From: an uncultured Alphaproteobacteria bacterium
GTDB lineage: Bacteria; Pseudomonadota; Alphaproteobacteria; RF32; CAG-239
Assembly (NCBI GenBank): GCA_944391445.1
Contig: CALXTL010000006.1
Span: forward strand, 21,123 to 85,122
Direction: 5' to 3'
DNA: 64,000 bases
The notes below the pieces were generated by a model that worked only from the letters and a program-made list of their open reading frames with translations, searched no databases and had not been told where the DNA came from. Below, piece by piece: positions 1,982 through 60,853 of this stretch. The stretch's first letter is position 1, and each line of letters starts with the position of its first letter. Both the position numbers and the translations under genes were made by a program.

Positions 1982-2015
1982 AAAAACCCGGTGTGCATCC
2001 GCATACCGGGTTTTT
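1982..2015. terminator. bidirectional terminator hairpin (small ORF / prfC)
   Basis: A-run, then CCCGGTGTG ... CATACCGGG, then a T-run, placed between convergent genes. Confidence 0.6.
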
Positions 2016-2026
2016 GTGATTTAAAA

Positions 2027-3613
2027 TCAATGATTTTCGATCGTTTTGGAGAATTTAACTTTAGGAAAATCTTCTTGAGCTTTATTCAAATGCCAGGCGT
2101 TGCGGGCTAAAAACACCGGCGCGCCGTCATTATCTTCGGCCAAATTGGCCTGATTGGCGTCAGAGAATTTTTTCCATTCGTTTTTGTCGTCGCAGCTGAC
2201 CCAGCGTGCGGTGAAATATTGTGTCTGTTCAAACATGACGGGCAGGTTGAATTCATTTTTAATTCGGTCTGCCATCACTTCAAATTGCAATGCGCCGACC
2301 ACGCCGACAATCCACTCGGCGCCGATCATCGGTTTAAACACACTGGCGCCGCCTTCTTCGGCAATTTGTCTCAGCGCATCTCCCAGATGTTTAGATTTGA
2401 GCGGATCCAGCGCCCGGGCAGATTTAAGCAATTCAGGCGCAAAAGACGGAATGCCAGTAAAGTTAAATTTTTCTCCTTCGGTAAGAGTATCGCCGATTCG
2501 GAGTTGCCCATGGTTAGGAATACCGATAATATCACCGGCAAAAGCATCTTCCGCTAGTTCGCGCTCCTGAGCCAGAAACATAACCGGTGTCGGCACTTTA
2601 AGCTCTTTTCCGGTGCGCACTTGCAACAGTTTCATGCCGCGTTTGAAGTGCCCGGAGCAAAGGCGCATAAAAGCAATGCGGTCGCGGTGTTTGGGATCCA
2701 TATTAGCTTGGATTTTAAAAACAAAACCACTGACTTTAGGCTCATCGGCCAAAACCATACGTTCCTTAGCCGGATGCGGGCGCGGCGCCGGAGCAATCTG
2801 ATGCAGACCGTTGAGAATTTCACGCACGCCGAAGTTATTAATGGCGCTGCCAAAAAAGACCGGCGTCATGGATCCTTCCAAATAAGCTTCAAGATCAAAA
2901 GGCGGGCAAAGTTCTTTAATCATTTCCACATCTTCGCGCAGTTTGGCCGCCAGATAGGCAGGCAACAAACGGTCAATCTTATCATCGTCCAAGCCGCGGC
3001 AGGTTTCAATAGTGTCATTGATCTGCGATTTGTTTCCGGTTTTATTCATTAGAATCAGCTGATCATTAATCAGATCATAGCAACCGGCAAAATCCTTGCC
3101 CATTCCGATTGGCCAGCTGGCCGGAGTTGCCTCCAGAGCCAATGTCTTTTCAATTTCGTCCAGCAGCGCGAAAGGATCTTGTCCTTCCCGATCCAACTTG
3201 TTAATAAAAGTCAGGATCGGCACATCACGCAGCCGGCAAACTTCAAACAGCTTTTTAGTTTGCGTTTCAATACCTTTGGCGGCGTCAAGCACCATTACGG
3301 CGGAATCAACCGCGGTCAAAACCCGGTAAGTATCTTCCGAAAAATCTTCGTGTCCCGGTGTGTCCAACAGATTAAAAGTGATTCCGCGGTAATCAAAAGT
3401 CATAACAGAAGAGGCAACGGAAATTCCGCGCTCTTGTTCGACTTTCATCCAGTCGGAATGTGCCCGGCGGTTTTCGCCGCGAGCTTTGACGGCACCTGCC
3501 TGTTGAATGGCTCCGCCAAACAGCAGCAGCTTTTCGGTCAGGGTTGTCTTACCGGCATCCGGATGGGAAATAATTGCAAATGTTTTACGTGGATTTGGTT
3601 TATTCTCAGGCAT
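2027..3613 (-). CDS. prfC: peptide chain release factor 3 (GTPase)
   Basis: 528 aa with the GTPase motifs 'SHPDAGKTT', 'DTPGHEDF' and 'NKLD'. Overall layout is RF3-like. Confidence 0.95.
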   Translation of the reverse strand: MPENKPNPRKTFAIISHPDAGKTTLTEKLLLFGGAIQQAGAVKARGENRRAHSDWMKVEQERGISVASSVMTFDYRGITFNLLDTPGHEDFSEDTYRVLTAVDSAVMVLDAAKGIETQTKKLFEVCRLRDVPILTFINKLDREGQDPFALLDEIEKTLALEATPASWPIGMGKDFAGCYDLINDQLILMNKTGNKSQINDTIETCRGLDDDKIDRLLPAYLAAKLREDVEMIKELCPPFDLEAYLEGSMTPVFFGSAINNFGVREILNGLHQIAPAPRPHPAKERMVLADEPKVSGFVFKIQANMDPKHRDRIAFMRLCSGHFKRGMKLLQVRTGKELKVPTPVMFLAQERELAEDAFAGDIIGIPNHGQLRIGDTLTEGEKFNFTGIPSFAPELLKSARALDPLKSKHLGDALRQIAEEGGASVFKPMIGAEWIVGVVGALQFEVMADRIKNEFNLPVMFEQTQYFTARWVSCDDKNEWKKFSDANQANLAEDNDGAPVFLARNAWHLNKAQEDFPKVKFSKTIENH

Positions 3614-3698
3614 ATTGACAGTCTTTACAAGTTACATACAAAATTGCCTCCTTAATAAAACAAATTTTAAGGAGGCACAAGAGTTTTTTATAAGCGCG

Positions 3699-5063
3699 TC
3701 AGAAAGGCGAAGAGACGTTAGGTGTTCCGCTTTGAACCTGAGCCGGTGTGAGAGTCTCTGTTTTGGAAATCAGAGCCACGGCCTCGTTTCCTTTGGTGAC
3801 CGTATTAATTTTTGGGGTTACCGGGATAGGAACTTCCTCAACGGTTGTTTTAACTTCCGTCACGTTTGCCTGAACATTATCCGCAACCGGCGCATTTTGC
3901 TTTGCCTGAGCGGAAACCGCCGACACGTCGGAAGCAGCAGCCGGAGCCGCGGCCTTTTTAACGTCGCGTTTGATACCAAGATACCGCTCAATTGCTTTCT
4001 TTTCCGCAGCTTTTTCCGAAGCGGTGATCAGGTTCAGATCATATAATACTTCCAATTTGCGCAAATCTTTGGCCGCGCCCAGAATATCTCTGGCCGGCGC
4101 TTTAGGCTTCATTCTTGTGCGTGGCGACGGCGGCAAAAGTGCTTCAATAATCACATCACGTTCGGCGGAAAATTCACGCGGGGTAATGGCGCGGGACTCT
4201 ACGCCGTCTTTCAAAACATTAATACGCTCCACAATCAATTCCGGTGCCGGAACGGGCTGGTCAATTCCTTTCGCCGGCGGCATGTTGGTCAGGGGAAGCA
4301 ATCCGCCGAGGTTAGACATGCGGCGGGTCAAAAACTCTTCTTTGGTGATATAGTCTTTTTCGGCAAGCTCTTTCAGTACCAGAAAACGCGAGATGATATT
4401 CTGCTCCTGTTGTGAGAACAAATTGTCAATGGCTGGGGCTTTTTTTGCGACCGGCGCAGGCTTTTCCTTCAAGGCGCGTTTAATGGTGGCTGTGCTCTGA
4501 GCATTGCCGGCAGCCGGAGAAATATTGAAGTTCATTTGTCCGTTCGGAGTCTCAACAACCAGTTCACTTTGTTTAATGGTCAGACTGCGCAGCCGCGTCT
4601 TGGCAATATCGGCAAAACTCTGCGGTTTGCCGGTGGAACTGCCGAGAATGGAAGTGTCGGCACTGTCAATGATGATCAAATCTTCATAGTTCTGCCGGGC
4701 ACGGTTGAGCCGGCCGAGCTGTTCGGCAGCCAGAGCGCCGACCAGCAGCCCTTGTTGGTTGCGCGGGTTTGCTTTAAGAGAGTCCATGGAAAGTTCGAGT
4801 GCTTTTTTGAAATTCCCCTGCGAATAAGCCATGGTGGCGTCGGCCGCTTCCTGATTGCCGTCTTTTTCAAATTGGCGCACCAGCCAGTTAGATTCTTCAT
4901 CGGTGTTTTTCTTATCCAAAATGGCACATCCCGTAAGCAGGGCAAAAGTGGCGGTTGGCAGCAGGATTGTTTTGAAAATGCGGGGGCAGAACACTGCGTT
5001 ACTCCTCAAAATGATAAACGGTTTCAGCGGCTTTTGCAGGTATATTATAAAAGTTTGCGTCAT
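3699..5063 (-). CDS. lipoprotein with a TPR-like N-domain and three short 'IT..E(F/K)' repeats, function unknown
   Basis: 454-aa ORF with the lipobox 'LLTGC'. It has an Ala/Pro-rich linker and a repeated ITKEEFLTRR / ITPREFSAER / ITASEKAAEK motif. The start codon is uncertain. Confidence 0.6.
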   Translation of the reverse strand: MTQTFIIYLQKPLKPFIILRSNAVFCPRIFKTILLPTATFALLTGCAILDKKNTDEESNWLVRQFEKDGNQEAADATMAYSQGNFKKALELSMDSLKANPRNQQGLLVGALAAEQLGRLNRARQNYEDLIIIDSADTSILGSSTGKPQSFADIAKTRLRSLTIKQSELVVETPNGQMNFNISPAAGNAQSTATIKRALKEKPAPVAKKAPAIDNLFSQQEQNIISRFLVLKELAEKDYITKEEFLTRRMSNLGGLLPLTNMPPAKGIDQPVPAPELIVERINVLKDGVESRAITPREFSAERDVIIEALLPPSPRTRMKPKAPARDILGAAKDLRKLEVLYDLNLITASEKAAEKKAIERYLGIKRDVKKAAAPAAASDVSAVSAQAKQNAPVADNVQANVTEVKTTVEEVPIPVTPKINTVTKGNEAVALISKTETLTPAQVQSGTPNVSSPF

Positions 5064-27557: not shown

Positions 27558-28073
27558 ATGAAAATGAAAAAAAATCTTATGGCTTTCGTATGCGGAGGAT
27601 TATCGCTCATGGTTTCTGCGTGCCAGTCAAATGTCAGACCTCCAATTGTTCCGGCTGTTGAGGTCAGACAGTGTGCTGATTCTGCGCTGGAAATTATCGG
27701 CGGAGTCGAACCGGTTTATTTTCTGCCGCTGAGTGCGCCGCTTGAGTCGCGGATAGATACCGGAGCGGAAACATCATCTGTTCATGTGGAAAATTTGCGC
27801 ACTTTTGAACGCGATGGCGAAAAATGGGTCGGTTTTGAAATAAGCGGCACCCGTTTTGAGAAAAGAATTCAGCGTAAAACAGTCATTCGTCGCCAGCTGA
27901 AAGACGAAGAGCGCGTTGTTGTTAATCTGGATGTCAAAATCGGTGACGAAATTATCACCGCCGAATTTACGTTGGCAGACCGGTCAAAGTTCGAGTATGA
28001 AGGACTGATCGGCCGCAACATCCTCAACGGACGCTTTATTGTCGATCCGTCGCTTGAACACACTTTGCGTTAG
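27558..28073 (+). CDS. retropepsin-like protease-family protein ('ATP-dependent zinc protease'/RimB-like), lipoprotein
   Basis: Lipobox 'MVSAC', the 'SRIDTGAETSSVHV' aspartic-protease-like motif, and a C-terminal 'GLIGRNILNGRFIVDP'. Confidence 0.65.
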   Translation: MKMKKNLMAFVCGGLSLMVSACQSNVRPPIVPAVEVRQCADSALEIIGGVEPVYFLPLSAPLESRIDTGAETSSVHVENLRTFERDGEKWVGFEISGTRFEKRIQRKTVIRRQLKDEERVVVNLDVKIGDEIITAEFTLADRSKFEYEGLIGRNILNGRFIVDPSLEHTLR

Positions 28074-28084
28074 GGAATATTGCC

Positions 28085-29620
28085 GTGATGCTGAAAAAAC
28101 TGGCTTCAGTCAGGGGAATCCTGTCAATTTTGCTGTTGTTGTCAATCGTTTATGCCGCTTATGGCATTTATTACAAAGTTTCTTACTGGGGGTTTCATTT
28201 TACGCCGCGGCAAAGTGCCAATATCTGGACAATTGAGGCTCATATTTCTTTTGAACCGACCGGCGAGCCGATAAAAGTCGCGCTGACAACGCCGCGCAGC
28301 AGCGATGCTTTCAAAATTCTGGAAGAAAATGTTGTGGCCGAAGGGTATAAGACCAGCAAAAACAAAGAGGAATCTCGTCTGGTGCTGACCAGTGCGCCCA
28401 AGGTGGATAAGCAGGACATATATTATAAAATCATGCTGTTTGACAATATCGACACGCGCGGCAAGATCAAAGCCGACGCGCCCAAAGCGCCCAAACAGCC
28501 GATTTTTGACGAACAGCGGCTGGCTGCGGCCAAGCAGTTATTGCAGCTTGCCCAAAAACAAGATGGCGATGCCGTCAGCCAAATTATCCGTCTGTTGAAC
28601 GAAGAACCGTTGCAGCCTGCCGTTCAGGCCTATCTGCCGGTGAAGTCAACCCAGCAGATTATGGTTGAAATCATTACCGACTTACTGTCGCTCAAGGGCA
28701 TTCCTTCCCGCACCGCCCGAGGTTTCCGCTTGGAAGAGAGCAAAAAAGCCCTTTCTCCTGATCTGATGATTGAGGCTTATATCGACGGTTTGTGGAAGAT
28801 TTACGACATCAAAACCGGCAAAAAAGGGTTGCCGGACAATTTTGTTTTGTTCCAGCGTGGCGGGCAATCGTTGATTGATGTTGAAGGCGGCGAAAATTCT
28901 GTAATCAAGTTTTCCGTGCTCAAATCAATAACCTCATCGATGAAGCTGGCCGGTCGCCGGGCTGAATTGTTTGACCAGCAGCGCAATTTCCAATATTCGA
29001 TTTACAATCTGCCGCTGGCGCAGCAGAACACGTTGAAATGGCTGTCTATTTTTCCTCTGGCTATTTTGGTGATTGTCCTGATGCGCAATGTCATCGGCCT
29101 GCAGACAATGGGCACGTTCACACCGATGTTGCTGGCCATGTCTTTGGTCAAAACCGGTTTTTGGCCGGGACTGTTGTGTTTTGCAATTATCATGGTTTTG
29201 GGGCTGAGCATCCGTTTTCTCATGTCAAAGTTTAATTTACTGCTGGTACCGCGGATTTCGGCGGTGGTCATTTTCGTCATACTGATTATGCAGTTTCTGA
29301 CGGTCATTGGCTATCAGCTGGAGTTTAATATTGCTCAGTCGGCGGTCTTTTTCCCGATCATCATCATGTCGTGGATTATTGAACGGGCTTCAATCACCTG
29401 GGAAGAAGATGGTGCACTGAATGCCTGCCGGGAAATCGTGTTCAGTCTGATTGTGGCGATAGCGACATATTTTGTCATCAGCAGCGAATATATCCGTCAT
29501 ATCATGTTTGCGTTTAATGAGCTCAATCTGGTGATTCTGTTTATAGTCATGTTACTTGGGACTTATACCGGATATCGCCTGATGGAGTTGAAGCGTTTTC
29601 GTCCTTTGGTGAAGAGTTAG
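28085..29620 (+). CDS. 7-TM protein with N-terminal inactive-transglutaminase-like ectodomain
   Basis: 511 aa with one N-terminal TM, a roughly 300-aa soluble domain and 7 C-terminal TM helices. It sits between the protease-like and ATP-grasp genes. Confidence 0.55.
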   Translation: MMLKKLASVRGILSILLLLSIVYAAYGIYYKVSYWGFHFTPRQSANIWTIEAHISFEPTGEPIKVALTTPRSSDAFKILEENVVAEGYKTSKNKEESRLVLTSAPKVDKQDIYYKIMLFDNIDTRGKIKADAPKAPKQPIFDEQRLAAAKQLLQLAQKQDGDAVSQIIRLLNEEPLQPAVQAYLPVKSTQQIMVEIITDLLSLKGIPSRTARGFRLEESKKALSPDLMIEAYIDGLWKIYDIKTGKKGLPDNFVLFQRGGQSLIDVEGGENSVIKFSVLKSITSSMKLAGRRAELFDQQRNFQYSIYNLPLAQQNTLKWLSIFPLAILVIVLMRNVIGLQTMGTFTPMLLAMSLVKTGFWPGLLCFAIIMVLGLSIRFLMSKFNLLLVPRISAVVIFVILIMQFLTVIGYQLEFNIAQSAVFFPIIIMSWIIERASITWEEDGALNACREIVFSLIVAIATYFVISSEYIRHIMFAFNELNLVILFIVMLLGTYTGYRLMELKRFRPLVKS

Positions 29621-29624
29621 CGCA

Positions 29625-30584
29625 ATGTTTGAATGGGTCAAATCTTTTGCTTCTCCGCGCCAGCTTTCTCAGGCAGGTGTCCTGGGGATGAACCGTCGCA
29701 ATTTTGACGTCATCTCCAAATACAATCCGCGCCGGCTTTACCCGTTGGTTGATGATAAAGTCAAAACCAAAGAACTGGCCAACAAAATCGGGATTAATAC
29801 GCCGCATCTGATCGGCAAAATTGAATATCAGCATGAAGCTAAAAATATCCTTGAACTGATTGGCAACCGGCATGAGTTTGTCATCAAGCCGGCACAAGGC
29901 AGCGGCGGTAAAGGCGTTTTGGTAATCAGGGACTATCGCGACGGCGTGTTTACCACGGCATCGGGGCGCACCATCGGCTATCATGAAGTTTATCAGCATA
30001 TTTCCAATATTTTGAGCGGACTGTATTCTCTCGGCGGCAAATATGACACGGCCATTATTGAAGAGCTGGTCCATTTTTCCGACATTTTCAAAGATTACAG
30101 TTATCAAGGAGTTCCGGATGTTCGGGTGATTGTTTATAAAGGATATCCGGCGCTGGCCATGACCCGCCTGCCGACAAAAGCGTCCGGGGGCCGGGCCAAT
30201 CTGCATCAAGGAGCCATCGGCGTCGGGCTGGATATCCGGACCGGCCGGGCGCTGCGGGGAGTTTGCCGCGATATGCCGGTAACACGGCAACCGGACACCG
30301 GAGCTGATTTGATGAAGATTGAAGTGCCGTTTTGGCGCGAGCATCTGATGATTGGGGCATTGGCTTATGAAATGACCGGTCTTGGCTATCTGGGGGCGGA
30401 TATTGTGCTGGATGCGGAGCGTGGCCCGATGATGTTGGAGCTAAATGCACGTCCCGGTTTAGCAATCCAGATTGCCAACGGCATCGGTTTGGTGGAATGT
30501 CTGCGCGAGATTGATAATCATTATCCGGAAGGGCTGTCGGCGCCGCAGCGGGTCGACTTTGTATTGAATAAACGTGCAAAATAG
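29625..30584 (+). CDS. alpha-L-glutamate-ligase-like ATP-grasp protein (RimK-related)
   Basis: 319 aa, ATP-grasp pattern ('FVIKPAQGSGGKGV', 'LGADIVLD...MLELNARPG'). It starts 4 nt after the preceding gene. Confidence 0.7.
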   Translation: MFEWVKSFASPRQLSQAGVLGMNRRNFDVISKYNPRRLYPLVDDKVKTKELANKIGINTPHLIGKIEYQHEAKNILELIGNRHEFVIKPAQGSGGKGVLVIRDYRDGVFTTASGRTIGYHEVYQHISNILSGLYSLGGKYDTAIIEELVHFSDIFKDYSYQGVPDVRVIVYKGYPALAMTRLPTKASGGRANLHQGAIGVGLDIRTGRALRGVCRDMPVTRQPDTGADLMKIEVPFWREHLMIGALAYEMTGLGYLGADIVLDAERGPMMLELNARPGLAIQIANGIGLVECLREIDNHYPEGLSAPQRVDFVLNKRAK

Positions 30585-31324: not shown

Positions 31325-31341
31325 GAGCATTTCACTAAATA
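31325..31341 (+). repeat. 17-bp direct repeat copy 1 (GAGCATTTCACTAAATA)
   Basis: Identical to 31665-31681. Confidence 0.9.
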
Positions 31342-31428
31342 CTCAAATACAAATAAAACAAACTTTTCAAATAGTCAACCAAAAACAGCAAATAAAAGAA
31401 CAAAATATGAACACACAGGGAAATGTTC

Positions 31429-31457
31429 TTGACATAATTTGAATAAGGTATTAGCTT
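31429..31457 (+). promoter_or_regulatory. candidate promoter TTGACA-17-TAGCTT
   Basis: Perfect -35 at 31429-31434. The -10 is weak (T1, A2 and T6 conserved). Confidence 0.3.
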
Positions 31458-31519
31458 AAAAAATCGGCAAAGGATTGCCGTGTACCTGCGACAGGTAGGG
31501 AGCCTTGACAAGCTCTTAA

Positions 31520-31534
31520 ATTTAGTGCGGTGCT
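31520..31534 (-). repeat. partial inverted copy of the 17-bp repeat (12/15: AGCA-ccg-CACTAAAT)
   Basis: The + strand reads ATTTAGTGcggTGCT, the reverse complement of the AGCATTTCACTAAAT core with 3 central mismatches. Confidence 0.55.
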
Positions 31535-31664
31535 AGGATATGGCGTCGATAATTAATATCGGGTTATTTAAAAGGACGATATTAATAATATATCCCCGAC
31601 AGTATCAAAAGGTCGGGGAGCCCGTGGTGTATGTTCAGAAGTTTTAGCTTTAAAGACCAGTGGG

Positions 31665-31681
31665 GAGCATTTCACTAAATA
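31665..31681 (+). repeat. 17-bp direct repeat copy 2 (GAGCATTTCACTAAATA)
   Basis: Identical to 31325-31341. Here it is part of the AGCAT...ATGCT hairpin. Confidence 0.9.
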
Positions 31682-31700
31682 TGCTTTGTCAACTCTCCGA

Positions 31701-31726
31701 CCACCTCAATGCAGGTGGTTTTTTGT
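31701..31726 (+). terminator. intrinsic terminator
   Basis: CCACCT-caatgc-AGGTGG followed by TTTTTTG. There is no upstream A-run, so it works on the + strand only. Confidence 0.7.
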
Positions 31727-31839
31727 ATTATATCAGCAAAAACGGGGAGCTACGTGACGGCGCATAAGTCGAAATCTTGTTGTGGATTAACAATGAAACA
31801 TAAGAAAAGTTGCCCGTTTGCATACCGGAGACAGGTAAG

Positions 31840-32427
31840 ATGATTTGCGCCTATGTGCAAGACTCTGCTCTGGGAGAAGATGATGCTTCTTTGGCCTGCC
31901 AGTACCAATCCATACAGTTATTTACGCGTGAAAACAATCTTACAGTTGATGTCTGGCATCGGGGTATTGATACGGAAGAGACACTTGTACGGTTGCACGC
32001 CGGCGACACATTGTTGGTCTGCCGGTTCAGCAGTCTTGGCGTATCGCTGAAAAAAGTTTGGCGTTCACTATCTGTCTGTTGGAATAAAAATATTAAAATC
32101 ATTGTGATTCAGAATAAAAATATTTTTGAAAAAAACAGTGAAATGCATCAGTTGTTGGAAGCGATGGAATTGGTTGTCAAAATCGAAACGGACATCAGAT
32201 CGCAGTCCGTCCGTCGCCGGCTGCAGCAGAGGCGCAGGGAAGGGAAAGTTCTCGGGCGCCCTTTTGGCAGTCGTAATCGAAAAACTAAACTGAGCGGACG
32301 TGAAGAAGAGATAACCTCACTTTTGGCACAAAAAGTTTCCAAAAGCGCCATTGCCAAACGCCTGGGCGTTAACCGGATGACCTTATACGGGCATCTGCGT
32401 CGGATGGAAGAACAAAAAGCCGCCTGA
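31840..32427 (+). CDS. serine-recombinase-like protein with degenerate catalytic motifs and intact C-terminal HTH
   Basis: Paralogue of the 60248-60853 product (shared ...REN..(V/I)D.W..., GD.L, LGR.FGS.N.K..L.G.E.EI..LLAQ.VSK..IA...GV...T.Y..L.R). It reads AYVQDSA for YIRVST and FSSLGV for SRLGR. ATG 31840 follows a GGAG SD. Confidence 0.7.
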   Translation: MICAYVQDSALGEDDASLACQYQSIQLFTRENNLTVDVWHRGIDTEETLVRLHAGDTLLVCRFSSLGVSLKKVWRSLSVCWNKNIKIIVIQNKNIFEKNSEMHQLLEAMELVVKIETDIRSQSVRRRLQQRRREGKVLGRPFGSRNRKTKLSGREEEITSLLAQKVSKSAIAKRLGVNRMTLYGHLRRMEEQKAA

Positions 32428-32436
32428 AAAGGCGGC
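32413..32436 (-). terminator. sodB terminator embedded in the 3' end of the recombinase-like CDS
   Basis: GCCGCC-tgaaaa-GGCGGC, with a T-run on the minus strand. Confidence 0.6.
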
Positions 32437-53558: not shown

Positions 53559-53579
53559 TATTGTAAATTTTCAGGCGGT

Positions 53580-54563
53580 CTAAGCCAGGCTTTTGCGCTT
53601 GATAACAAATTTTCTGCCGCAGATATCCAAAATATTTGTCCGACAGTCGATATCAACCAGCTTATAATAGGCAAGAAATTTGCCGAGCCTGAATTTATAG
53701 CGGATTGAAGGATAAAAACGGGAGAAAATTTCCTGCCAGTGTTCAAAGCCGGGACGGCTGACAACTTCTTTTTCATAGCGTTTTGTCTGCAGAATAATTT
53801 GCCGCATGTATGCTTTTTTCTTAACAGTGTTGTTCTGATGCCAGCGGTAGGAAAACAAAACATCATCAAGATATTTCATTTTACCGATTTTAGAAAGCTG
53901 CAGCATCATATACCAGTCTTCCAGCGGTGCCTCTGGTTTATATCCGCCGGTTTGACGCAGTGCTTTTGCCGTGATCAGATACCCGTTGGGAACATAATTC
54001 CGGGTGACAAAATTTTCATAGGCGCCGAAGGACTCTGAGTGAAAATCTATATCAGGATAAAGACTTTGCAAAAATGCACCGAAAGTATGATATTTTGCAA
54101 CTGTCAGCGGCACATTGTTTTGGTGTGCATCCCAGCCGGTGCGCTCGGAGCTCGTGTCAATCAGTTCATTATCACCCACAACCAGCACATATTCCGGGTG
54201 TGAGGTTAAAAATTTAACCTCAACGGCCAAAGCATGGCTTTTAGCCACATCGTCTGAAGCAATAAAATAAATAAAATCTCCTCTGGCCAATTCTATCAGC
54301 CGGTTCATAGTCCGGCAGGTGCCGCTGTTTTTCTGCGTCAACATCACCACGCGGACAAAGCGGTTTTCGCATTTTTCTTTCAGGGAAAATATCTGCTGCA
54401 GGGTGCCATCGGTAGAACCGTCGTCAATAATCAGCAGTTCAATATTCCGGTATGTTTGCAAGATAATGGATTCAATCGTCTGCCGAATATATTGTTCATG
54501 GTTATAAGCGGGAATGCAAACGGATACAAGCGGTGCATCATTGTTCATTTTATAATTCCTCAA
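53580..54563 (-). CDS. family 2 glycosyltransferase
   Basis: 'VSVCIPAYNHEQYIRQTIESIILQTYRNIELLIIDDGSTDGT'. Confidence 0.8.
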   Translation of the reverse strand: MRNYKMNNDAPLVSVCIPAYNHEQYIRQTIESIILQTYRNIELLIIDDGSTDGTLQQIFSLKEKCENRFVRVVMLTQKNSGTCRTMNRLIELARGDFIYFIASDDVAKSHALAVEVKFLTSHPEYVLVVGDNELIDTSSERTGWDAHQNNVPLTVAKYHTFGAFLQSLYPDIDFHSESFGAYENFVTRNYVPNGYLITAKALRQTGGYKPEAPLEDWYMMLQLSKIGKMKYLDDVLFSYRWHQNNTVKKKAYMRQIILQTKRYEKEVVSRPGFEHWQEIFSRFYPSIRYKFRLGKFLAYYKLVDIDCRTNILDICGRKFVIKRKSLA

Positions 54564-55308
54564 ATTTGAATTTTTTAGTTTTTTTCAGCCGAAAATCCGG
54601 TCGAAATTCATCAAATATCTTACGCCAGTGAATATGATCATTGCACTTGGCCGTGACATTGTTTTCATCGGTAAAAAAGGCCACCCGGCGGATAAAAAAG
54701 CCTGGATCTTGCAATTTTTTTTCCAAATCCGGCTGCTTCCCTTGTTCCAGAATCAACAGCAGGTCAAACGAATTATGACACAGACTTTGCAAGGTTGCAA
54801 ACAACAGGCGAAGTTTATCGGCGAGGGCAGTGTCAAGAATGTCGCTTGGCGCTAATTTGTATATATACAAATTTTTTTTGCCATCCGCCGCGGTTTGGCG
54901 GAATTTCTGTTTTAGGTGGTTAAGCCGGGAAAAAAGTTCTTCCCGGTCGGCTGTGATGACATCATCGAAAGGATTTTCCCGCCACACACTGACGGGCGCT
55001 TTTCCATGAAAACAAATGCCCGTATTCTGGCAGCGCCACATCGGATTAGTGTTTTTAAGACCGCCGGCGGCAATAGTTTCAATATTGCTCAAAGCAGCGG
55101 TAAGGTGTGCAAGGTCGATACAATTGGCCCAGGCAAACAAACTGCTTTCAACAAAATGATATTTTAAAAAGAATTGAAAAGAAACTTCGCAATTATAGCC
55201 AAGAGAAATGATATGACCGTAGTATTTTTGATGCCGTGGTCGCAGCAGCCGGCGCAAAGAACTAAACAAAAGCATTAATTGCCTCCGCAATTTGCGCCGC
55301 TTCTTCAT
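54550..55308 (-). CDS. DUF1796-like (putative papain-like) protein
   Basis: '[14 protein letters not shown]' resembles the DUF1796 N-terminal motif. The start is ambiguous (55308 or 55275), and both choices overlap the upstream gene. Confidence 0.4.
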
Positions 55309-56350
55309 CGGTCAGCACCGGAGAAATCGGCAGAGACAAAACTTCGCGGTGCAGTTTTTCGCTGATTGGGAAGTGTTGTTCACGCCATTCCTGATATGCT
55401 TCTTGTCGATGTGGCGGTGTCGGATAATGAATATTGGTCTGAATGCCTTTTTCAGCCAGAAATTTTTGCAGTCTGTCGCGTTCGGGGCAGCAAATGGCAA
55501 AAATATGCCAGACATGTGCCGTCTCATTTACCGCTTGCGGCAATGAAATCAGCGGATTATTAATATGCCGCCGATAATAGGTGGCAATTTCGCGCCGTCT
55601 GTTATTATCGGCATCCAGGTGAGCCAAACGGACATCCAGTACGGCCGCCTGTAACTCATCCAACCGTGAATTAACGCCTTTATACAGATGATGGTATTTA
55701 CGGTCGCTGCCATAGTTGGCCAAGGCTTTTATTTTTTCATACAGGGCGGTGTCATTAGTGGTAATGCCGCCGGCATCGCCCATAGCGCCAAGATTTTTAC
55801 CCGGATAAAAGGAGAAAGCTGCCGCATCGCCGAGGCTGCCGACACGTTTTCCATGATAAATTGCCCCATGAGCCTGCGCGGCATCTTCAATAACTTTCAG
55901 ATGATGCTTGGCGGCCAGCTTGTTTATGGAAGCCATATCGGCGGCTTGTCCATAAAGATGAACGGCAATAATCGCTTTGCTTTTTTTAGTCAAAGCAGCC
56001 TCAATTCGCTTTGGGTCGATATTGCGGGTTTCCGGGTCTGGTTCAACCAAAACCGGCGTGCAACCGTTTTCAGATACGGAAAGAATGGTTGCAATAAAAG
56101 TATTGGCCGGGACAATAATTTCGTCACCTGGACCAAAACCATATGCGCGGATAATCAGTTTCAGAGCGTCTAACCCGTTGGCAACGCCCAACGCGTGGCG
56201 AACGCCGCAAAATGCAGCAAAATTTTGTGCAAAGCGCTCATTTTCTTTTCCTTGCAGATACCAGCCGCTGTCCAGAACACTTTTGAACCGGGCGTCAATT
56301 TCGTCTCGGAAGCGTTCGTTGATTTTATGTAAATCCAAAAACTTTATCAT
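55262..56350 (-). CDS. DegT/DnrJ/EryC1/StrS-family sugar aminotransferase (FdtB/QdtB-like)
   Basis: '[10 protein letters not shown]' and '[15 protein letters not shown]' (PLP lysine). Confidence 0.85.
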
Positions 56351-57360
56351 ATGATTCCTTTTTTACGAAGTTTATAAGCCGCCCAGTCATATATTTTTTT
56401 AATCAGACGGTATTTGAGCTTTTTTAATTGCGGATGCAATATCAGATTAATTTCTTTTTTGTGATTTAAGCAAATTGTTAAGACATCAAAAAATTTTTCA
56501 CGGGCTTCCAAACAGAAGCTTTGATTTTCTTTAGCCTGATTCAAACAGGAAAGACAATGACAAATTTCTTTCCAGGCTTTGCCAATAAAAAATTGATGAT
56601 ACCTGCCGTCAAAATAGCGGTCATAATCTATAAAACACCGAGCTTGAATTGCCGCTTTTTCAAAATCGTTCAATCCCGTCCATATGCCGCCGGACAACAA
56701 ACGGTAAACACCGCTGCTTTCATTGACAAAATGTGCTTTGCCGCTGTGCAAATGCATGATGAATCTGTCGGCGTCTCCTTCAAAAGATCTTTCAGCATCA
56801 GTGCCGACAGCGTGTTGCACAATGTCGGGAATGCCATTGCGGTAGATCGTATTTCTGAACACCATTCCGGTTGTTTGTGAAAAGAAAATCTTGTCATGTA
56901 AAAAATCATCAAAAGTAAAATCGGCCGTTTTCAGTTTTGTCTGCACATAAAGGCGCGAACTTCCGTTTTCACGGAGCGTCGTCACGTTGGTATAATAAAT
57001 ACTGAAATCCTTGTTTTTCTCCAAAAAGTCCACAGCTTTTTGCAAATAAGCGTCGTCTGTCCAATAGTCATCGGCATCAAGTAACGTAAAATAAGGCGTT
57101 TTTGTTTGCGCTTTGGCCCGCAGAATATTTTGGAGATAGCGGCCGTTTTCTTTATTTTCTAAAACACGGATAATGTTTGGATATTTTTGTGCATAAGCGC
57201 GGATAATCTCAAGGCTGTTGTCTTTCAAAGAGTGGTCATCGGTAATGAGCAGGCAAAACGGAAAAGACGTCCTTTGCGCCAGAACGGATTCGATAGCCTG
57301 TCCGACATACCGGGCCTGATTATAATTGGACATAATCACTGTCAGTTTGGGGTGTCGCAT
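56347..57360 (-). CDS. family 2 glycosyltransferase
   Basis: '[24 protein letters not shown]' and 'LLDADDYW'. Its stop overlaps the next start (ATGA). Confidence 0.75.
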
Positions 57361-58745
57361 TGTTTGTCTCTTTTGGTATATTTTATTTTGATAATTCCGA
57401 ACAGGACCAAAGTCCTGCGGCGGCCGTTTTTGATTTTTGCGAAAAGTTTAAATTTTCTTCGCCCAAAGTGTTTTTTGCCGCGGCGAAAGGCAGCAATGAG
57501 TTTGCGATCATCTCTGTCCTTAGGGATTTCATTTCTTTTTTTCTTCATCTCATCCAAAATATCCAGGCGGATGAATTTGATGCCGTGCCAATAAAAATGC
57601 CGTCGTGGATCATAAATAATTTCAGTTTTGCTGCAGGGATAGTAGACGAGTTCAGTTTCATGAGAGGAAAGATCATTGCTTTGCGGTGTAAACGGCATAT
57701 TTCCGGCATAGAGAAAATCCAAATCGCTGCTTTGCCGCAGACCGAGCAGGTTAAGCGGCGTGCTACCAACGCAGCAGATATCGTTAAGATCAACATTTTG
57801 TTCGTTGGCTTCTTTTCTGAGCTGCTCAGTCATGACGTCAAATTTTTTATCTTCAAAGTCGAAGGGGCAAAAATTCAGCAAATGAAGAGAATCCTCATTA
57901 AAATAAGTCTCTGCCAGCCAAAGAGCTTCTTCCCGCGTGTCATTGATGTGCACACTGTAGTTTCCCAAGGCCAATAATTCTCTGATTTCTGCTTTGGCCT
58001 GCACGGCTTTTTCTAGACTGTCGCACACAAAGACATAGGCTCGGAGCGGCCGGCGTCCCATCGATTTTCGGGCGTGAGCCTGCGCACCGGCAAAATGGTT
58101 TTCCGTCGAACCGATCCAGGGTTCTCTTTCCCAGAATGAGCCGTAAGAAAGCTTTTTCAAATTGACATAACCGTTAAAAGTCAGATGAACATCTTTTTGA
58201 TAAAAAATAAAACCGTATTTTTCAAGAATTTGTTCGACTTGTCTGTCTTTGGCTTGGTCTGCAACAGCATGCAGATTGACGATATAGGCGTAGGGATTAA
58301 GCCTGACATATTCCAGAGCGGCATAATCGGCAAACAGAGGGTTAAGTCCTTTGTCGCGGAAAAATTTATAATCATATAAATCGTGTCGGCCGTCCGGAGT
58401 AAGTGCCACATCCAGGCCGAGAACGGCAGCACAGGCAAGGCGGTGAGCGCCGTCGCTGATCTCTCCGTTGTCGCCGATCGGGATCAGACCTTTGCTTTTG
58501 TCAAAACCATGAGTCTGCATATTGGCAAACAAACATTCAAAAGCGCGAATAAAATCTTCGGGTGAATTTTTGGGATGCCCGTCGCTCGGCTCCTGCTCAA
58601 AAAAATGATTAAATGCCCGAATATGCTCAAGATACATCTCCCGGAAAAAAGGGAGATTCTTATCTTTATACCGCAAATAAAGATATTTAAAAATCAAATC
58701 AAACCGTTTGGAGCAAAGCAGTAGGCTTAAAGCGTTTGTTTGCAT
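57342..58745 (-). CDS. hypothetical protein with an N-terminal ParB/sulfiredoxin-like motif and a C-terminal Pol-beta-type nucleotidyltransferase-like motif
   Basis: 'PIGDNGEISDGAHRLACAA' is a DGxHR-type motif. 'CCVGSTPLNLLGLRQSSDLDFLY' is GS-x9-11-DxD-like. The C-terminal tail is basic. Confidence 0.45.
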   Translation of the reverse strand: MQTNALSLLLCSKRFDLIFKYLYLRYKDKNLPFFREMYLEHIRAFNHFFEQEPSDGHPKNSPEDFIRAFECLFANMQTHGFDKSKGLIPIGDNGEISDGAHRLACAAVLGLDVALTPDGRHDLYDYKFFRDKGLNPLFADYAALEYVRLNPYAYIVNLHAVADQAKDRQVEQILEKYGFIFYQKDVHLTFNGYVNLKKLSYGSFWEREPWIGSTENHFAGAQAHARKSMGRRPLRAYVFVCDSLEKAVQAKAEIRELLALGNYSVHINDTREEALWLAETYFNEDSLHLLNFCPFDFEDKKFDVMTEQLRKEANEQNVDLNDICCVGSTPLNLLGLRQSSDLDFLYAGNMPFTPQSNDLSSHETELVYYPCSKTEIIYDPRRHFYWHGIKFIRLDILDEMKKKRNEIPKDRDDRKLIAAFRRGKKHFGRRKFKLFAKIKNGRRRTLVLFGIIKIKYTKRDKQCDTPN

Positions 58746-58747
58746 TT

Positions 58748-59683
58748 TTATAACTCCAGACGGTAAAAATTATAAGCAACGCTGCGGGCGCCGAAACTTT
58801 CTTTCTGGGCACACAGACCGGTATTGAACACAGTACCGTTTTGCTCGGTAGAGATACCGAAATCAAACCATTTCTTTTTCCCCTGAAAATAATCAATCAA
58901 GTGCTTGATCAAAAGATCCAGACCGCCGATTTGTCTGGCAGTTTCGTTAGCAGCCAGATATTGCGTATGCACGCAGTTTGAGTATATAAAAACAAGGGCG
59001 CCGGCAATCATTTGTCCGCCATGCATTGCCGTCCATAAACGAATATTTTCCGGAAAGCGGGATTTCAGTAATACCAGCTCGGCAGCCGTATGTACGGCTT
59101 TGGTTTGATGATGCTGCCACAAAACCTGATTTTCCAGCCGGATAAAATTTTCAAAATCTTCCGATTCCGCAACAGAAACATTTTCCCGCCGGGCACGGGC
59201 AATTTGTGCTTTTCGGCCTTTAGACATTTTTTGCGGATTTTCCAGATCAATAACTGAAGCAACATCGCTTCGCCATAAATTGGCGCCGTGTTGCAGCAAT
59301 GGCCATAAATATTCTTCCGCCGGAATAAGATGATAAATATAAGGAACGCTTTTATAAATAAATTCATGGATTTTGCGGTCGTGCAGATAAGTTATCAAAG
59401 CGTCGACACAATCGTTAATATGATGTTGTTTGGTTTCCGGCGCAGTGAAAAAGCCGCCGTAAGTCAGCCCGCCGTGCGAGCAGAGGACGCCGTCTTGTAC
59501 CGAGGCCGGCAGCAAAGCAACCAGTTTGTCATCGTCATAAAACAATAGTGAAAAATCAGTAAAACGGTCGGCATGATATTCCATAAAATTGCGATGGAAC
59601 ATAAACATCGGTGATTTTGAACGATCAATAAAATCATCCCATATGTCATGAAATTCCTGGGTATATTGAAAAATTCTAATCAT
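58748..59683 (-). CDS. FemAB/GNAT-like acyl- or aminoacyl-transferase
   Basis: True start is MIRIFQYTQEF at 59683 (ATGATTAG overlap with the fdtA-like stop). The longer track ORF is an out-of-frame overlap of the upstream gene. 'KGRKAQIARARR' is FemAB-like. Confidence 0.4.
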   Translation of the reverse strand: MIRIFQYTQEFHDIWDDFIDRSKSPMFMFHRNFMEYHADRFTDFSLLFYDDDKLVALLPASVQDGVLCSHGGLTYGGFFTAPETKQHHINDCVDALITYLHDRKIHEFIYKSVPYIYHLIPAEEYLWPLLQHGANLWRSDVASVIDLENPQKMSKGRKAQIARARRENVSVAESEDFENFIRLENQVLWQHHQTKAVHTAAELVLLKSRFPENIRLWTAMHGGQMIAGALVFIYSNCVHTQYLAANETARQIGGLDLLIKHLIDYFQGKKKWFDFGISTEQNGTVFNTGLCAQKESFGARSVAYNFYRLEL

Positions 59684-60101
59684 GAGCAACCTCATGCAAA
59701 AAAAGAGCGTAGTCCCGGATATAGTCTGCTTCATCATAATGTTCGGAAGCCAACACCATGAGAACGCAATCTGCAGAAAAATGAGTAAATTCCCGCCAAA
59801 TATTATGCCGAAGATAAAGTCCTTGCGCCGGATTGTCAAGATGCACAACTGTGCGCCGGCAGCCGTCATCCAGAACAAAATCACAGCTGCCGGCCAGGCA
59901 GAGGATAACCTGTTCAAGCTGGCGGTGGGCATGTTTTCCGCGGATGGCATCATAAGATGTTCCCCAAATGTAATAAACCCGCTTAACGGCAAAGGGGAAA
60001 TCCGCTCCTGCTTCCAAAGCGACCAGATTTCCCCTGAGATCACCGTGTATTTTGAAGTCAAGTAATTGATACATTGAGCCCGTACCATAAGGTTGATGCA
60101 T
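59676..60101 (-). CDS. WxcM/FdtA-like cupin (dTDP-4-keto-6-deoxyhexose 3,4-ketoisomerase type)
   Basis: 'DLRGNLVALE...PFAVKRVYYIWGT...RGKHAHRQLEQVILCLAGS'. Possible starts are TTG 60107, ATG 60101 and ATG 60074. Confidence 0.7.
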   Translation of the reverse strand: MHQPYGTGSMYQLLDFKIHGDLRGNLVALEAGADFPFAVKRVYYIWGTSYDAIRGKHAHRQLEQVILCLAGSCDFVLDDGCRRTVVHLDNPAQGLYLRHNIWREFTHFSADCVLMVLASEHYDEADYIRDYALFLHEVAHD

Positions 60102-60121
60102 GTTCAAAACAGCCCGAATTA

Positions 60122-60136
60122 ACGGACGTTAGATTT
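60122..60136 (+). repeat. IR-L of the invertible cassette (ACGGACGTTAGATTT)
   Basis: Perfect reverse complement of 60234-60248. Confidence 0.9.
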
Positions 60137-60203
60137 CCGAGTTATAATGCAAAGTCTGAAAAAAAGCGAAACCGAAGAAACAAGCGCGGCAGAGAAATTT
60201 TTA

Positions 60204-60232
60204 TTGCAAACAAAATTAAACTAAAGTATAAG
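60204..60232 (+). promoter_or_regulatory. sigma70-type promoter TTGCAA-17-TATAAG inside the cassette
   Basis: Hexamers at 60204-09 and 60227-32 with a 17-nt spacer. The -10 ends 1 nt before IR-R. Confidence 0.55.
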
Positions 60233-60233
60233 A

Positions 60234-60248
60234 AAATCTAACGTCCGT
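60234..60248 (+). repeat. IR-R of the invertible cassette (AAATCTAACGTCCGT)
   Basis: Perfect reverse complement of 60122-60136. Its last base is part of the recombinase stop codon. Confidence 0.9.
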
Positions 60249-60853
60249 CAGATTTTCCGATCTTTTGCCCGGGACAGGAAGTTATAAATTGTTTTCGTGC
60301 TGACCCCGACAGATTCAGCGATTCGCGTTTTAGAAACTCCCTGAGCCAGAAGTTGAAATATTTCATTTTCTTTACCGTCCAAAACATGTTTTTTGTTTTT
60401 ACTGCCGAAAGCGCGGCCGAGCTTGTGCCCGCAGGATTTAAGACGCAGCAGGGATTCTCTGGTTCTCTGGCTGATGAGGTCTCGTTCAATTTCCGCGGCC
60501 AGCCCGAAGGCAAAAGCCAGAACCTTGCTTTGCAAATCGGCTCCGAGTTTATAATTGTCTTTAATTGTCCGTACCTGAACATTTTTCTGCATGCAAATGT
60601 TTAATATAGACATAATCTGAAATAAATTGCGCCCCAGCCTGGAAATCTCCGAAGCAATCAGAATATCGCCGGATTTCAGCCGTCGCAGCAAGACGCCCAA
60701 ACGCCGTTCTTCAAAACTTTTGCTGCCGCTGACGGTTTCCCGGATCCAGCAGTCAATCAAAAAATTTTCCCGTTGGCAAAAATTGATGATTTCAAATTCC
60801 TGATTATCAAGATTCTGTTTCCCTGTACTCACTCTGATATAGCCGTATATCAT
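60248..60853 (-). CDS. small serine recombinase / DNA invertase (Hin/Mpi-like)
   Basis: 'MIYGYIRVSTGKQ' (nucleophile Ser), 'SGDILIASEISRLGRN', 'EIERDLISQRT' and the C-terminal HTH 'GVSKTRIAESVGVSTKTIYNFL'. Strong AAAGGAGGAG SD. Confidence 0.85.
   Translation of the reverse strand: MIYGYIRVSTGKQNLDNQEFEIINFCQRENFLIDCWIRETVSGSKSFEERRLGVLLRRLKSGDILIASEISRLGRNLFQIMSILNICMQKNVQVRTIKDNYKLGADLQSKVLAFAFGLAAEIERDLISQRTRESLLRLKSCGHKLGRAFGSKNKKHVLDGKENEIFQLLAQGVSKTRIAESVGVSTKTIYNFLSRAKDRKI

Follow-up and report, generated by a model that had tools for sequence, protein, structure and literature searches.

A putative non-catalytic descendant of Mpi-type serine invertases linked to glycan loci in uncultured gut Alphaproteobacteria

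Organization of the locus

We analyzed a stretch of 64,000 nucleotides (hereafter, the window) from an uncultured alphaproteobacterium of the CAG-239 lineage (assembly GCA_944391445.1, contig CALXTL010000006.1, positions 21,123 to 85,122 of the forward strand), which encodes two paralogues of the serine-recombinase family. One of them, the subject of this study, is an intact open reading frame (ORF) on the plus strand (31840–32427; 195 codons from the ATG, plus stop) for a protein that resembles Mpi-type invertases and appears to have lost their active site; we refer to it as the dead protein. The other, encoded on the minus strand (60248–60853), is an intact master invertase of the Mpi family and represents an active paralogue in the same genome (284.7 bits with the NCBIfam Mpi model NF009949; cut-off 272). 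The two proteins are 36% identical over 183 residues (BLASTP, E 4e-27), in agreement with an earlier, sequence-only reading of the window that had aligned the intact 195-residue product with this invertase; the strand of the invertase is added here.

Some gene callers start the dead gene at a TTG at position 31810, which yields a 205-residue product (as in P0001). We favor the ATG at 31840, because the N terminus of the family (M-I-x-A/G-Y) aligns there and because a GGAG motif, read from the sequence as the ribosome-binding site (31827–31830, plus strand), lies 9 nt upstream. At the other end of the gene, a GC-rich hairpin (32419–32436), detected in a terminator scan, is read as a bidirectional terminator common to the dead gene and the convergent sodB gene.

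The intact invertase is associated with a candidate invertible promoter (60122–60248), in which perfect 15-bp inverted repeats, ACGGACGTTAGATTT (60122–60136) and AAATCTAACGTCCGT (60234–60248), surround 97 bp. The stop codon of the invertase abuts this repeat pair, and on the other side, downstream of the invertible segment, lies a seven-gene glycan-biosynthesis operon on the minus strand (53580–60107), encoding FdtA-like, GNAT, GT2, DegT and GT2 proteins. The arrangement is a Bacteroides-style inverton in an alphaproteobacterium, and similar repeat cores (CGTTAGATTT) occur in three related loci (L014, L015 and L061).

The dead protein has lost the catalytic site and kept the fold

The dead protein comprises a degenerate resolvase-like α/β domain (residues 1–99; 31840–32136), which is its least conserved part, a long E-helix, the oligomerization helix of these enzymes (residues 100–133; 32137–32238; assigned from the alignment and a structural model), and a minor-groove arm (LGRPFGS) followed by a three-helix helix-turn-helix (HTH) domain (residues 134–190; 32239–32409), which is best conserved. 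In the alignment with the intact invertase, the Y-x-R-x-S motif, YIRVST, is changed to YVQDSA, with Q replacing R8; SRLGRN is changed to SSLGVS, with S and V replacing R68 and R71, respectively; and EIERDLISQRT in the E-helix is changed to KIETDIRSQSV, with both catalytic arginines replaced (T117 and S123). This agrees with the motif degradation described in the sequence-only reading. That reading had also placed a gap of 12–15 residues between the first two motifs; the gap is real and measures 10 residues, corresponding to the active-site loop after β2 (ETxSGxKxxE; the D36/S39/R45 region), which is deleted in the window protein and in every member of its clade, and the protein additionally bears a 3-residue insertion near residue 10. 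The serine at the nucleophile position, noted in the same reading as retained, is indeed present (Ser10), but relatives have N, F, Q and other residues at this position, and its retention in the window protein is therefore probably incidental. Judged by its sequence, the dead protein is devoid of a catalytic apparatus and cannot be a canonical recombinase; the previous conclusion that it is probably not a recombinase is supported, as the catalytic residues and the active-site loop are gone.

Profile searches, which had been suggested as a check, gave a partial match to Pfam Resolvase (residues 46–136 only, 32.7 bits, compared to 102 bits for the intact paralogue) and a passing match to HTH_7 (24.4 bits). 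The best match of the dead protein was the Mpi model NF009949, at 100.2 bits, which falls short of the equivalog cut-off of 272. The YneB-type model NF049883 did not match the dead proteins, and the intact invertases found here match it weakly (25–33 bits). Searching the PDB by sequence returned a single match, Gin, at an E value of 0.004 only, and a fold comparison was therefore needed. In an AlphaFold2 model (mean predicted local distance difference test score 83), the dead protein adopts the canonical topology of small serine recombinases (β1-αA-β2-αB-β3 onward), with a 34-residue E-helix, a disordered arm and a three-helix HTH. The best Foldseek matches of this model were Tn3 resolvase on site III, γδ resolvase on site I and Sin on site II, each with a probability of 1.0. 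Thus, a resolvase-type α/β domain, a long E-helix and a C-terminal HTH are all predicted; the hydrophobic pattern of the E-helix is kept, and the recognition helix reads GVNRMTLYGHL.

Dead invertases form an old clade in gut Alphaproteobacteria

A word-indexed search of 5.8 billion proteins returned one copy from the same species (P0001) and one 40%-identical relative (P0002), which shows the same deletion and the same catalytic losses and is encoded on contig L001 convergently with sodB, as in the window. Scanning GTDB genomes yielded seven further members in metagenome-assembled genomes (MAGs) of uncultured gut Alphaproteobacteria, with two paralogues per genome; these MAGs originated from roe deer caecum and rectum, a Brazilian sample and a human infant. 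In a HMMER search of 1.84 billion representatives of 50%-identity clusters, about 28 of the best 150 matches carried the same 10-residue deletion and lacked the R-S-R-R-R-R catalytic set. The dead clade comprises at least 35 diverged clusters from uncultured gut Alphaproteobacteria, including Azospirillum sp. CAG:239; the cluster that holds the protein of the latter (P0049) has 133 members and is found on more than 1000 contigs. The clade is marked by the 10-residue deletion, by S-x-L-G-x-S-L in place of SRLGR and by a conserved LGRPxG arm and HTH, all of which are found in the window protein. Databases list its members as "hypothetical protein", "helix-turn-helix domain-containing protein", "recombinase family protein" or "DNA invertase Pin-like".

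In a neighbour-joining tree, which is subject to long-branch effects, no intact Mpi-like invertase groups with the dead proteins, not even those encoded beside them, and the window protein emerges as the most divergent of its clade, on a basal long branch. The shared deletion argues for a single origin of the dead clade independently of this tree. The clade is old, is so far confined to uncultured gut Alphaproteobacteria, and constitutes an undescribed family.

Several sequences share only some of the marks of the clade. In locus L058, an invertase is followed by two tandem, partly degenerate paralogues and then by glycosyltransferases; in the re-oriented copy (1306–1523 and 2000–3979), a leader RNA of the type described below, with a replaced 3' end and terminator, precedes the intact invertase and the two paralogues. 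The tandem paralogues have the loop deletion and keep R68 (FRLGKD and YRLGND), while P0139 keeps R8, S10, R68 and R71. These proteins may represent evolutionary stages on the way from active to dead forms. Intact invertases with an NRMT recognition helix (P0003–P0023) were considered as partners of the dead proteins and rejected, as their neighbourhoods, near radA and RRM genes, are unrelated and one of the contigs, L011, belongs to a Clostridia MAG.

Dead genes are linked to glycan loci

At 14 of 15 informative loci, the dead gene is co-directional with and directly beside glycan-biosynthesis genes, the window being the sole exception. The linkage, and with it the predicted co-transcription with variable glycan genes, takes two forms. 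In layout A, seen in distant members, an Mpi-type invertible promoter is followed immediately by the dead gene, in the order intact invertase, 150–270 bp with inverted repeats, dead gene and glycan genes, the last encompassing PEP mutase and phosphonate genes, heptose-pathway genes, GT2 and GT8 genes and a nucleotidyltransferase gene. The invertases adjoining the dead gene in L014, L015 and L060 score 310–318 bits with the Mpi model. Segments of 97–154 bp bounded by inverted repeats lie directly upstream of the dead gene in L012 (twice), L014, L060, L061 and L063. The repeats are a perfect 15-mer pair in L012, with a 24-mer pair for its second, divergent dead gene, a 22-mer pair in L014, perfect 17-mer pairs in L060 and L063, and a 21-mer pair (ATCTAACGAACGTTAGAT) in L061. 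In L012 (6292–8591), one invertase lies between two such segments that drive divergent operons, one a NeuB-type locus and the other a phosphonate and glycosyltransferase locus, each opening with its own dead paralogue.

In layout B, seen in the clade of the window protein, a structured leader RNA precedes a swappable glycan cassette, and the dead gene closes that cassette. The chromosomal slot of the window, in which the dead gene converges with sodB-fliJ-fliI and an OmpR-type regulator gene, is shared by the orthologues in L004, L005 and L008 (and, beside sodB-fliJ-fliI, by L001). Across L004, L005 and L008, the slot neighbours remain similar to those of the window (FliI, 93–96% identity; regulator, 97–98%; SodB, 74–85%), and the dead proteins are 39–44% identical. 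At each of these three loci, the dead gene ends a co-directional cassette of 3–5 kb whose content varies between genomes; the genes encode members of several glycosyltransferase families, epimerases, UDP-glucose dehydrogenase, LicD, a CDP-alcohol cytidylyltransferase, a short-chain dehydrogenase/reductase (SDR), DegT, WbqC and an ATP-grasp enzyme. Paralogues of the dead gene reside at two other chromosomal slots. The second slot, upstream of a flavin reductase gene and secF-secD-yajC, displays the same layout in L006, L007 and L010, with RgpF, RmlD and WsaF-type genes in the cassette and the dead gene overlapping the preceding gene.

Contig L001 captures a cassette exchange. Its sodB gene is 99% identical to that of L004 (dS 0.03), while its dead gene and the SDR gene upstream are of the L005 type (97% identity, vs 54% to L004). 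The dead gene moves with its cassette, and the breakpoint in L001 lies between the dead gene and sodB.

Purifying selection falls mainly on the DNA-binding part

Pairs of dead genes that are unsaturated at synonymous sites were compared by the Nei-Gojobori method. The resulting dN/dS values were 0.14 for L001/L005 (18 synonymous and 9 nonsynonymous differences), 0.12 for L009/L010 and 0.10 for L004/L008; more diverged pairs, in which dS is saturated, gave 0.2–0.3. Mean pairwise identity within the clade of the window protein rises from 38% in the N-terminal domain through 44% in the E-helix and 58% in the arm to 65% in the HTH. G139 in the LGRP arm does not vary among the 36 members, and S121 of the E-helix is nearly invariant across the dead family. 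As the arm and the HTH are most conserved, the selected part of the protein is the DNA-binding part. A plain pseudogene is refuted for the family by the dN/dS values of 0.10–0.14 together with the concentration of conservation in the arm and HTH. The sequence-only reading had offered two explanations for the intact frame. A domesticated DNA-binding regulator or accessory factor fits at the level of the family, given the deletion shared by many genomes, the low dN/dS and the conserved arm and HTH; a very young pseudogene survives as a minority reading for the window copy alone, for which polymorphism in the window species and a frameshifted orthologue can be cited (see below).

The window copy itself is full length in all 8 protein variants, found on about 20 contigs, which differ by T45A, C61F, N92D and L175M. 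Its N-terminal domain is 28% identical to those of its clade, and the residues of the arm and HTH that are conserved in the family are all present. The frameshifted orthologue (L008:5860-6441, from a human-infant gut MAG) is disrupted after about residue 40; its N terminus is readable in another frame, there is no homopolymer at the site, and the same genome carries an intact paralogue (L007).

A structured leader RNA precedes the dead gene in the window

About 460 nt of the 585-bp spacer between the upstream peptidyl-prolyl isomerase (PPIase) gene and the dead gene share 76–78% identity with the sequence that precedes the cassettes of L005 and L008, and part of what lies before the L006 and L007 cassettes matches the spacer as well. 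The spacer harbors a leader RNA of about 260 nt (31467–31725, plus strand) that is conserved and structured and that precedes glycan cassettes elsewhere and the dead gene directly in the window. The inferred leader promoter (31429–31457, plus strand) consists of a –35 element, TTGACA (31429–31434), a 17-nt spacer and a –10 element, TAGCTT (31452–31457); a consensus promoter scan did not call it, and its position is conserved in all leader variants. An intrinsic terminator (31699–31727, plus strand), supported by a terminator scan and the RNA alignment, ends the leader 112 nt before the ORF.

RNAalifold, applied to 14 leader variants of less than 95% identity, predicted 54 base pairs, 28 of which show compensatory double changes. 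A comparison with Rfam 15 gave no match, with terminator-like noise only at permissive thresholds. Scanning metagenomes uncovered 36 genuine copies of the leader, mostly from human gut and often two per contig, followed by diverse genes, among them a pilin-like gene, genes for signal-peptide proteins and an acetyltransferase-like gene. An association between leader and dead gene in metagenomes was rejected, since nearly all 36 copies lack a dead gene downstream; for the same reason, the leader is a general cis element rather than a partner of the dead gene. We consider it an undescribed terminator-containing RNA and a candidate for a new class of cis-regulatory RNAs.

The window contains two copies of a 17-mer, GAGCATTTCACTAAATA, in direct rather than inverted orientation, and the sequence-only reading had suggested that the dead protein might bind these adjacent repeats. 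This idea was not borne out. The second copy (31665–31681, plus strand) is the 3' strand of a long-range, covarying helix of the leader RNA, where it pairs with positions around 31519–31529, and the 17-mers were rejected as protein-binding or recombination sites. The first copy (31325–31341, plus strand) lies upstream of the leader promoter and is conserved at the equivalent chromosomal site of L005 and L008. It forms part of a region of about 100 nt 5' of the leader promoter (31325–31428) that is about 90% conserved in L005 and L008 although synonymous sites are saturated, and that contains AAATAC-like tandem repeats in addition to the exact copy of the leader-helix 17-mer; this region might serve as an operator, or it might be what is left of an earlier leader. 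A palindrome, TCCCCGAC/GTCGGGGA, was also considered as a DNA operator and rejected, given that its spacer can be anywhere between 8 and 11 nt long and that the way in which the loci were collected accounts for part of its invariance.

Among other features of the window, genes for RimB-like, 7TM-transglutaminase-like and ATP-grasp (RimK-like) proteins lie upstream of the PPIase gene (27558–30584, plus strand) and are syntenic in all related MAGs. A 446-residue ORF in the glycan operon (58748–60088, minus strand) overlaps the FdtA-like gene (59676–60107) in another frame; its mechanically assigned start is probably wrong, with the C-terminal part of about 280 residues (GNAT domain) alone looking genuine. 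A tblastn search of the window for a third paralogue or relic found the two known genes, and a 28-residue match at 53563–53640 (E 0.24) was dismissed because it lies inside a GT2 gene.

Discussion

Because the fold, the E-helix, the minor-groove arm and the HTH are kept, the dead protein should still bind a specific DNA site. Based on sequence, structural modeling and analogy, we lean, with modest confidence, towards a non-catalytic, site-specific DNA-binding regulator that descends from an Mpi-type invertase and is linked to glycan loci. In such a scheme, the dead protein would bind its site, probably as a dimer, and would carry out neither cleavage nor strand exchange. As a cassette-linked regulator, it would be made only while its glycan locus is transcribed, and it would act in trans, coupling the expression state of one glycan locus to that of others or to the switch. 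It might repress or lock other loci by occupying sites of the invertase type or sites near promoters, be it at its own switch or elsewhere. DNA binding, dimerization, the regulatory target and the direction of the effect are all inferred here. More broadly, we tentatively envisage, as a possibility rather than a probability, that gut Alphaproteobacteria of the CAG-239 type carry dedicated pseudo-recombinases inside each switchable glycan locus, which read out the locus that is ON and enforce a hierarchy or lock, via invertase-type sites or by poisoning the master invertase. Such proteins would form a counterpart, derived from recombinases, to the circuits of UpxY/UpxZ and FljA and would work together with the leader RNA.

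There are precedents for the individual elements of this proposal. Tn3 and γδ resolvases double as transcriptional repressors and as architectural subunits at res. These TnpR proteins, which act as architectural subunits at res sites II and III, share the fold of the dead protein and show that DNA binding can be exploited independently of catalysis; in TnpR, however, one protein with a preserved active site performs both jobs, whereas here a separate paralogue lacks catalysis. FljA of Salmonella is a regulator encoded within a phase-variable operon. FljA and UpxZ of Bacteroides are alike in operon logic, the regulator being co-transcribed with variable surface genes from a switchable promoter, but FljA targets mRNA and UpxZ a NusG paralogue, and both have folds unrelated to that of the dead invertase. 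YneB-type resolvase-like proteins (NF049883) are likewise small serine-recombinase homologues without a known recombination substrate and belong to a different lineage. UpxZ is a trans-inhibitor encoded in phase-variable glycan operons (PMC11685472).

The closest relative among known systems is Mpi (Ssr2; NF009949), which flips the promoters of capsular-polysaccharide loci in Bacteroides, and room has explicitly been left for proteins that modulate Mpi (PMC10403206). Among family models, that of Mpi gives the dead protein its highest score; the two proteins agree in length and domain order, and both are tied to phase-variable surface-glycan loci with short inverted repeats. The dead protein differs in its score (100 vs 272 bits), in the loss of the catalytic arginines and of the loop, and in the lack of adjacent inverted repeats in the window; moreover, Mpi belongs to Bacteroidales and the dead clade to Alphaproteobacteria.

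Several observations weigh against a regulatory role, either in general or for the window copy. No binding site for the dead protein was identified, and a literature search for the dead family or for inactive serine-recombinase regulators in glycan loci returned nothing relevant. The recognition helices of the dead protein and the invertase differ (NRMTLY vs STKTIY), as they likewise do in L012, L014 and L015, and sharing of the invertase sites is for this reason not supported by sequence. The invertase repeat motif had no match near the dead gene or in related loci, and inverted repeats were found neither near the dead gene nor flanking its upstream promoter and leader. The suggestion in the sequence-only reading that the protein binds the invertase repeats at 60122–60248 finds no sequence link. 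The HTH is nearly invariant between different loci of the window's clade, which argues against locus-specific discrimination. The window copy lacks a glycan cassette and is preceded only by the leader and 112 nt of unique sequence, an arrangement also seen in L002, L003 and L064, which are from the same species (99.3% identical over 8.6–20.6 kb). Lastly, four genomes of the species show 3 synonymous and 4 nonsynonymous segregating codons in the dead gene, compared to 25 and 2 in six neighbouring genes taken together (Fisher p = 0.0096), and the orthologue in L008 is frameshifted.

One rival reading is that the family is functional and the window copy, having lost its cassette, drifts as an intact but effectively neutral ORF. 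The window is the sole locus of 15 without adjacent glycan genes, its protein is the most divergent of its clade (28% identity in the N-terminal domain; basal long branch), its codon counts are compatible with neutrality, and the L008 frameshift shows that copies can decay. Nevertheless, stops and frameshifts are absent from the 8 protein variants on about 20 contigs, the family-conserved residues of the arm and HTH and the ribosome-binding site are intact, and the upstream leader is constrained, with 1 segregating site in 264 nt vs about 1.8% in the flanking spacers. The ratio of the dead gene cannot be told apart from neutrality (p = 0.20) nor, by a hand calculation, from a dN/dS of about 0.2, which 7 polymorphic codons are too few to reject. 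We regard a functionless remnant as unlikely; a functional family is well supported, the orphan window copy likely continues to function, and it may be under relaxed constraint.

Alternatively, the dead protein could serve as a subunit poison or modulator of inversion, its subunits joining those of the active Mpi-type invertase in dimers or tetramers that fail to complete concerted cleavage, such that expression of the glycan locus slows or biases promoter flipping. The phase would then be locked by contact between proteins and not via an operator of the dead protein. Serine recombinases need the activity of all four subunits, the hydrophobic pattern of the E-helix is kept in the dead protein, and an active invertase of the Mpi family is encoded in the same genome, in the window. 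In layout A, the active invertase lies directly beside the dead gene, which is the first product of the ON orientation. On the other hand, the N-terminal domain and the E-helix evolve fastest (38–44% identity) and are about 30–35% identical to the partner invertase, rendering a conserved hetero-interface doubtful, and the strong conservation of the arm and HTH suggests DNA binding as the selected function. Poisoning hence appears rather improbable to us. A recombinase that remains active with non-canonical catalytic residues is exceedingly improbable. A serine is aligned at the nucleophile position of the window protein, yet relatives vary at this position; R8, R68, R71 and the arginines of the E-helix are gone, the D36/S39/R45 loop is deleted in every member, and inverted repeats do not flank anything near the gene.

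Our favored interpretation remains that of a regulator that binds DNA and is tied to glycan loci. Should proteins of this family control or lock the phase variation of glycans, they would add a new layer of control over surface-glycan diversity in abundant, uncultured bacteria of the human gut, and they would illustrate clearly how a site-specific recombinase can become a pseudoenzyme regulator. The labels "recombinase family protein" and "DNA invertase Pin-like", which annotation pipelines assign to them, can mislead inverton surveys that use proximity to an invertase as evidence. The leader RNA, with its 28 covarying pairs and no match in Rfam, is a separate candidate for a new class of cis-regulatory RNA.

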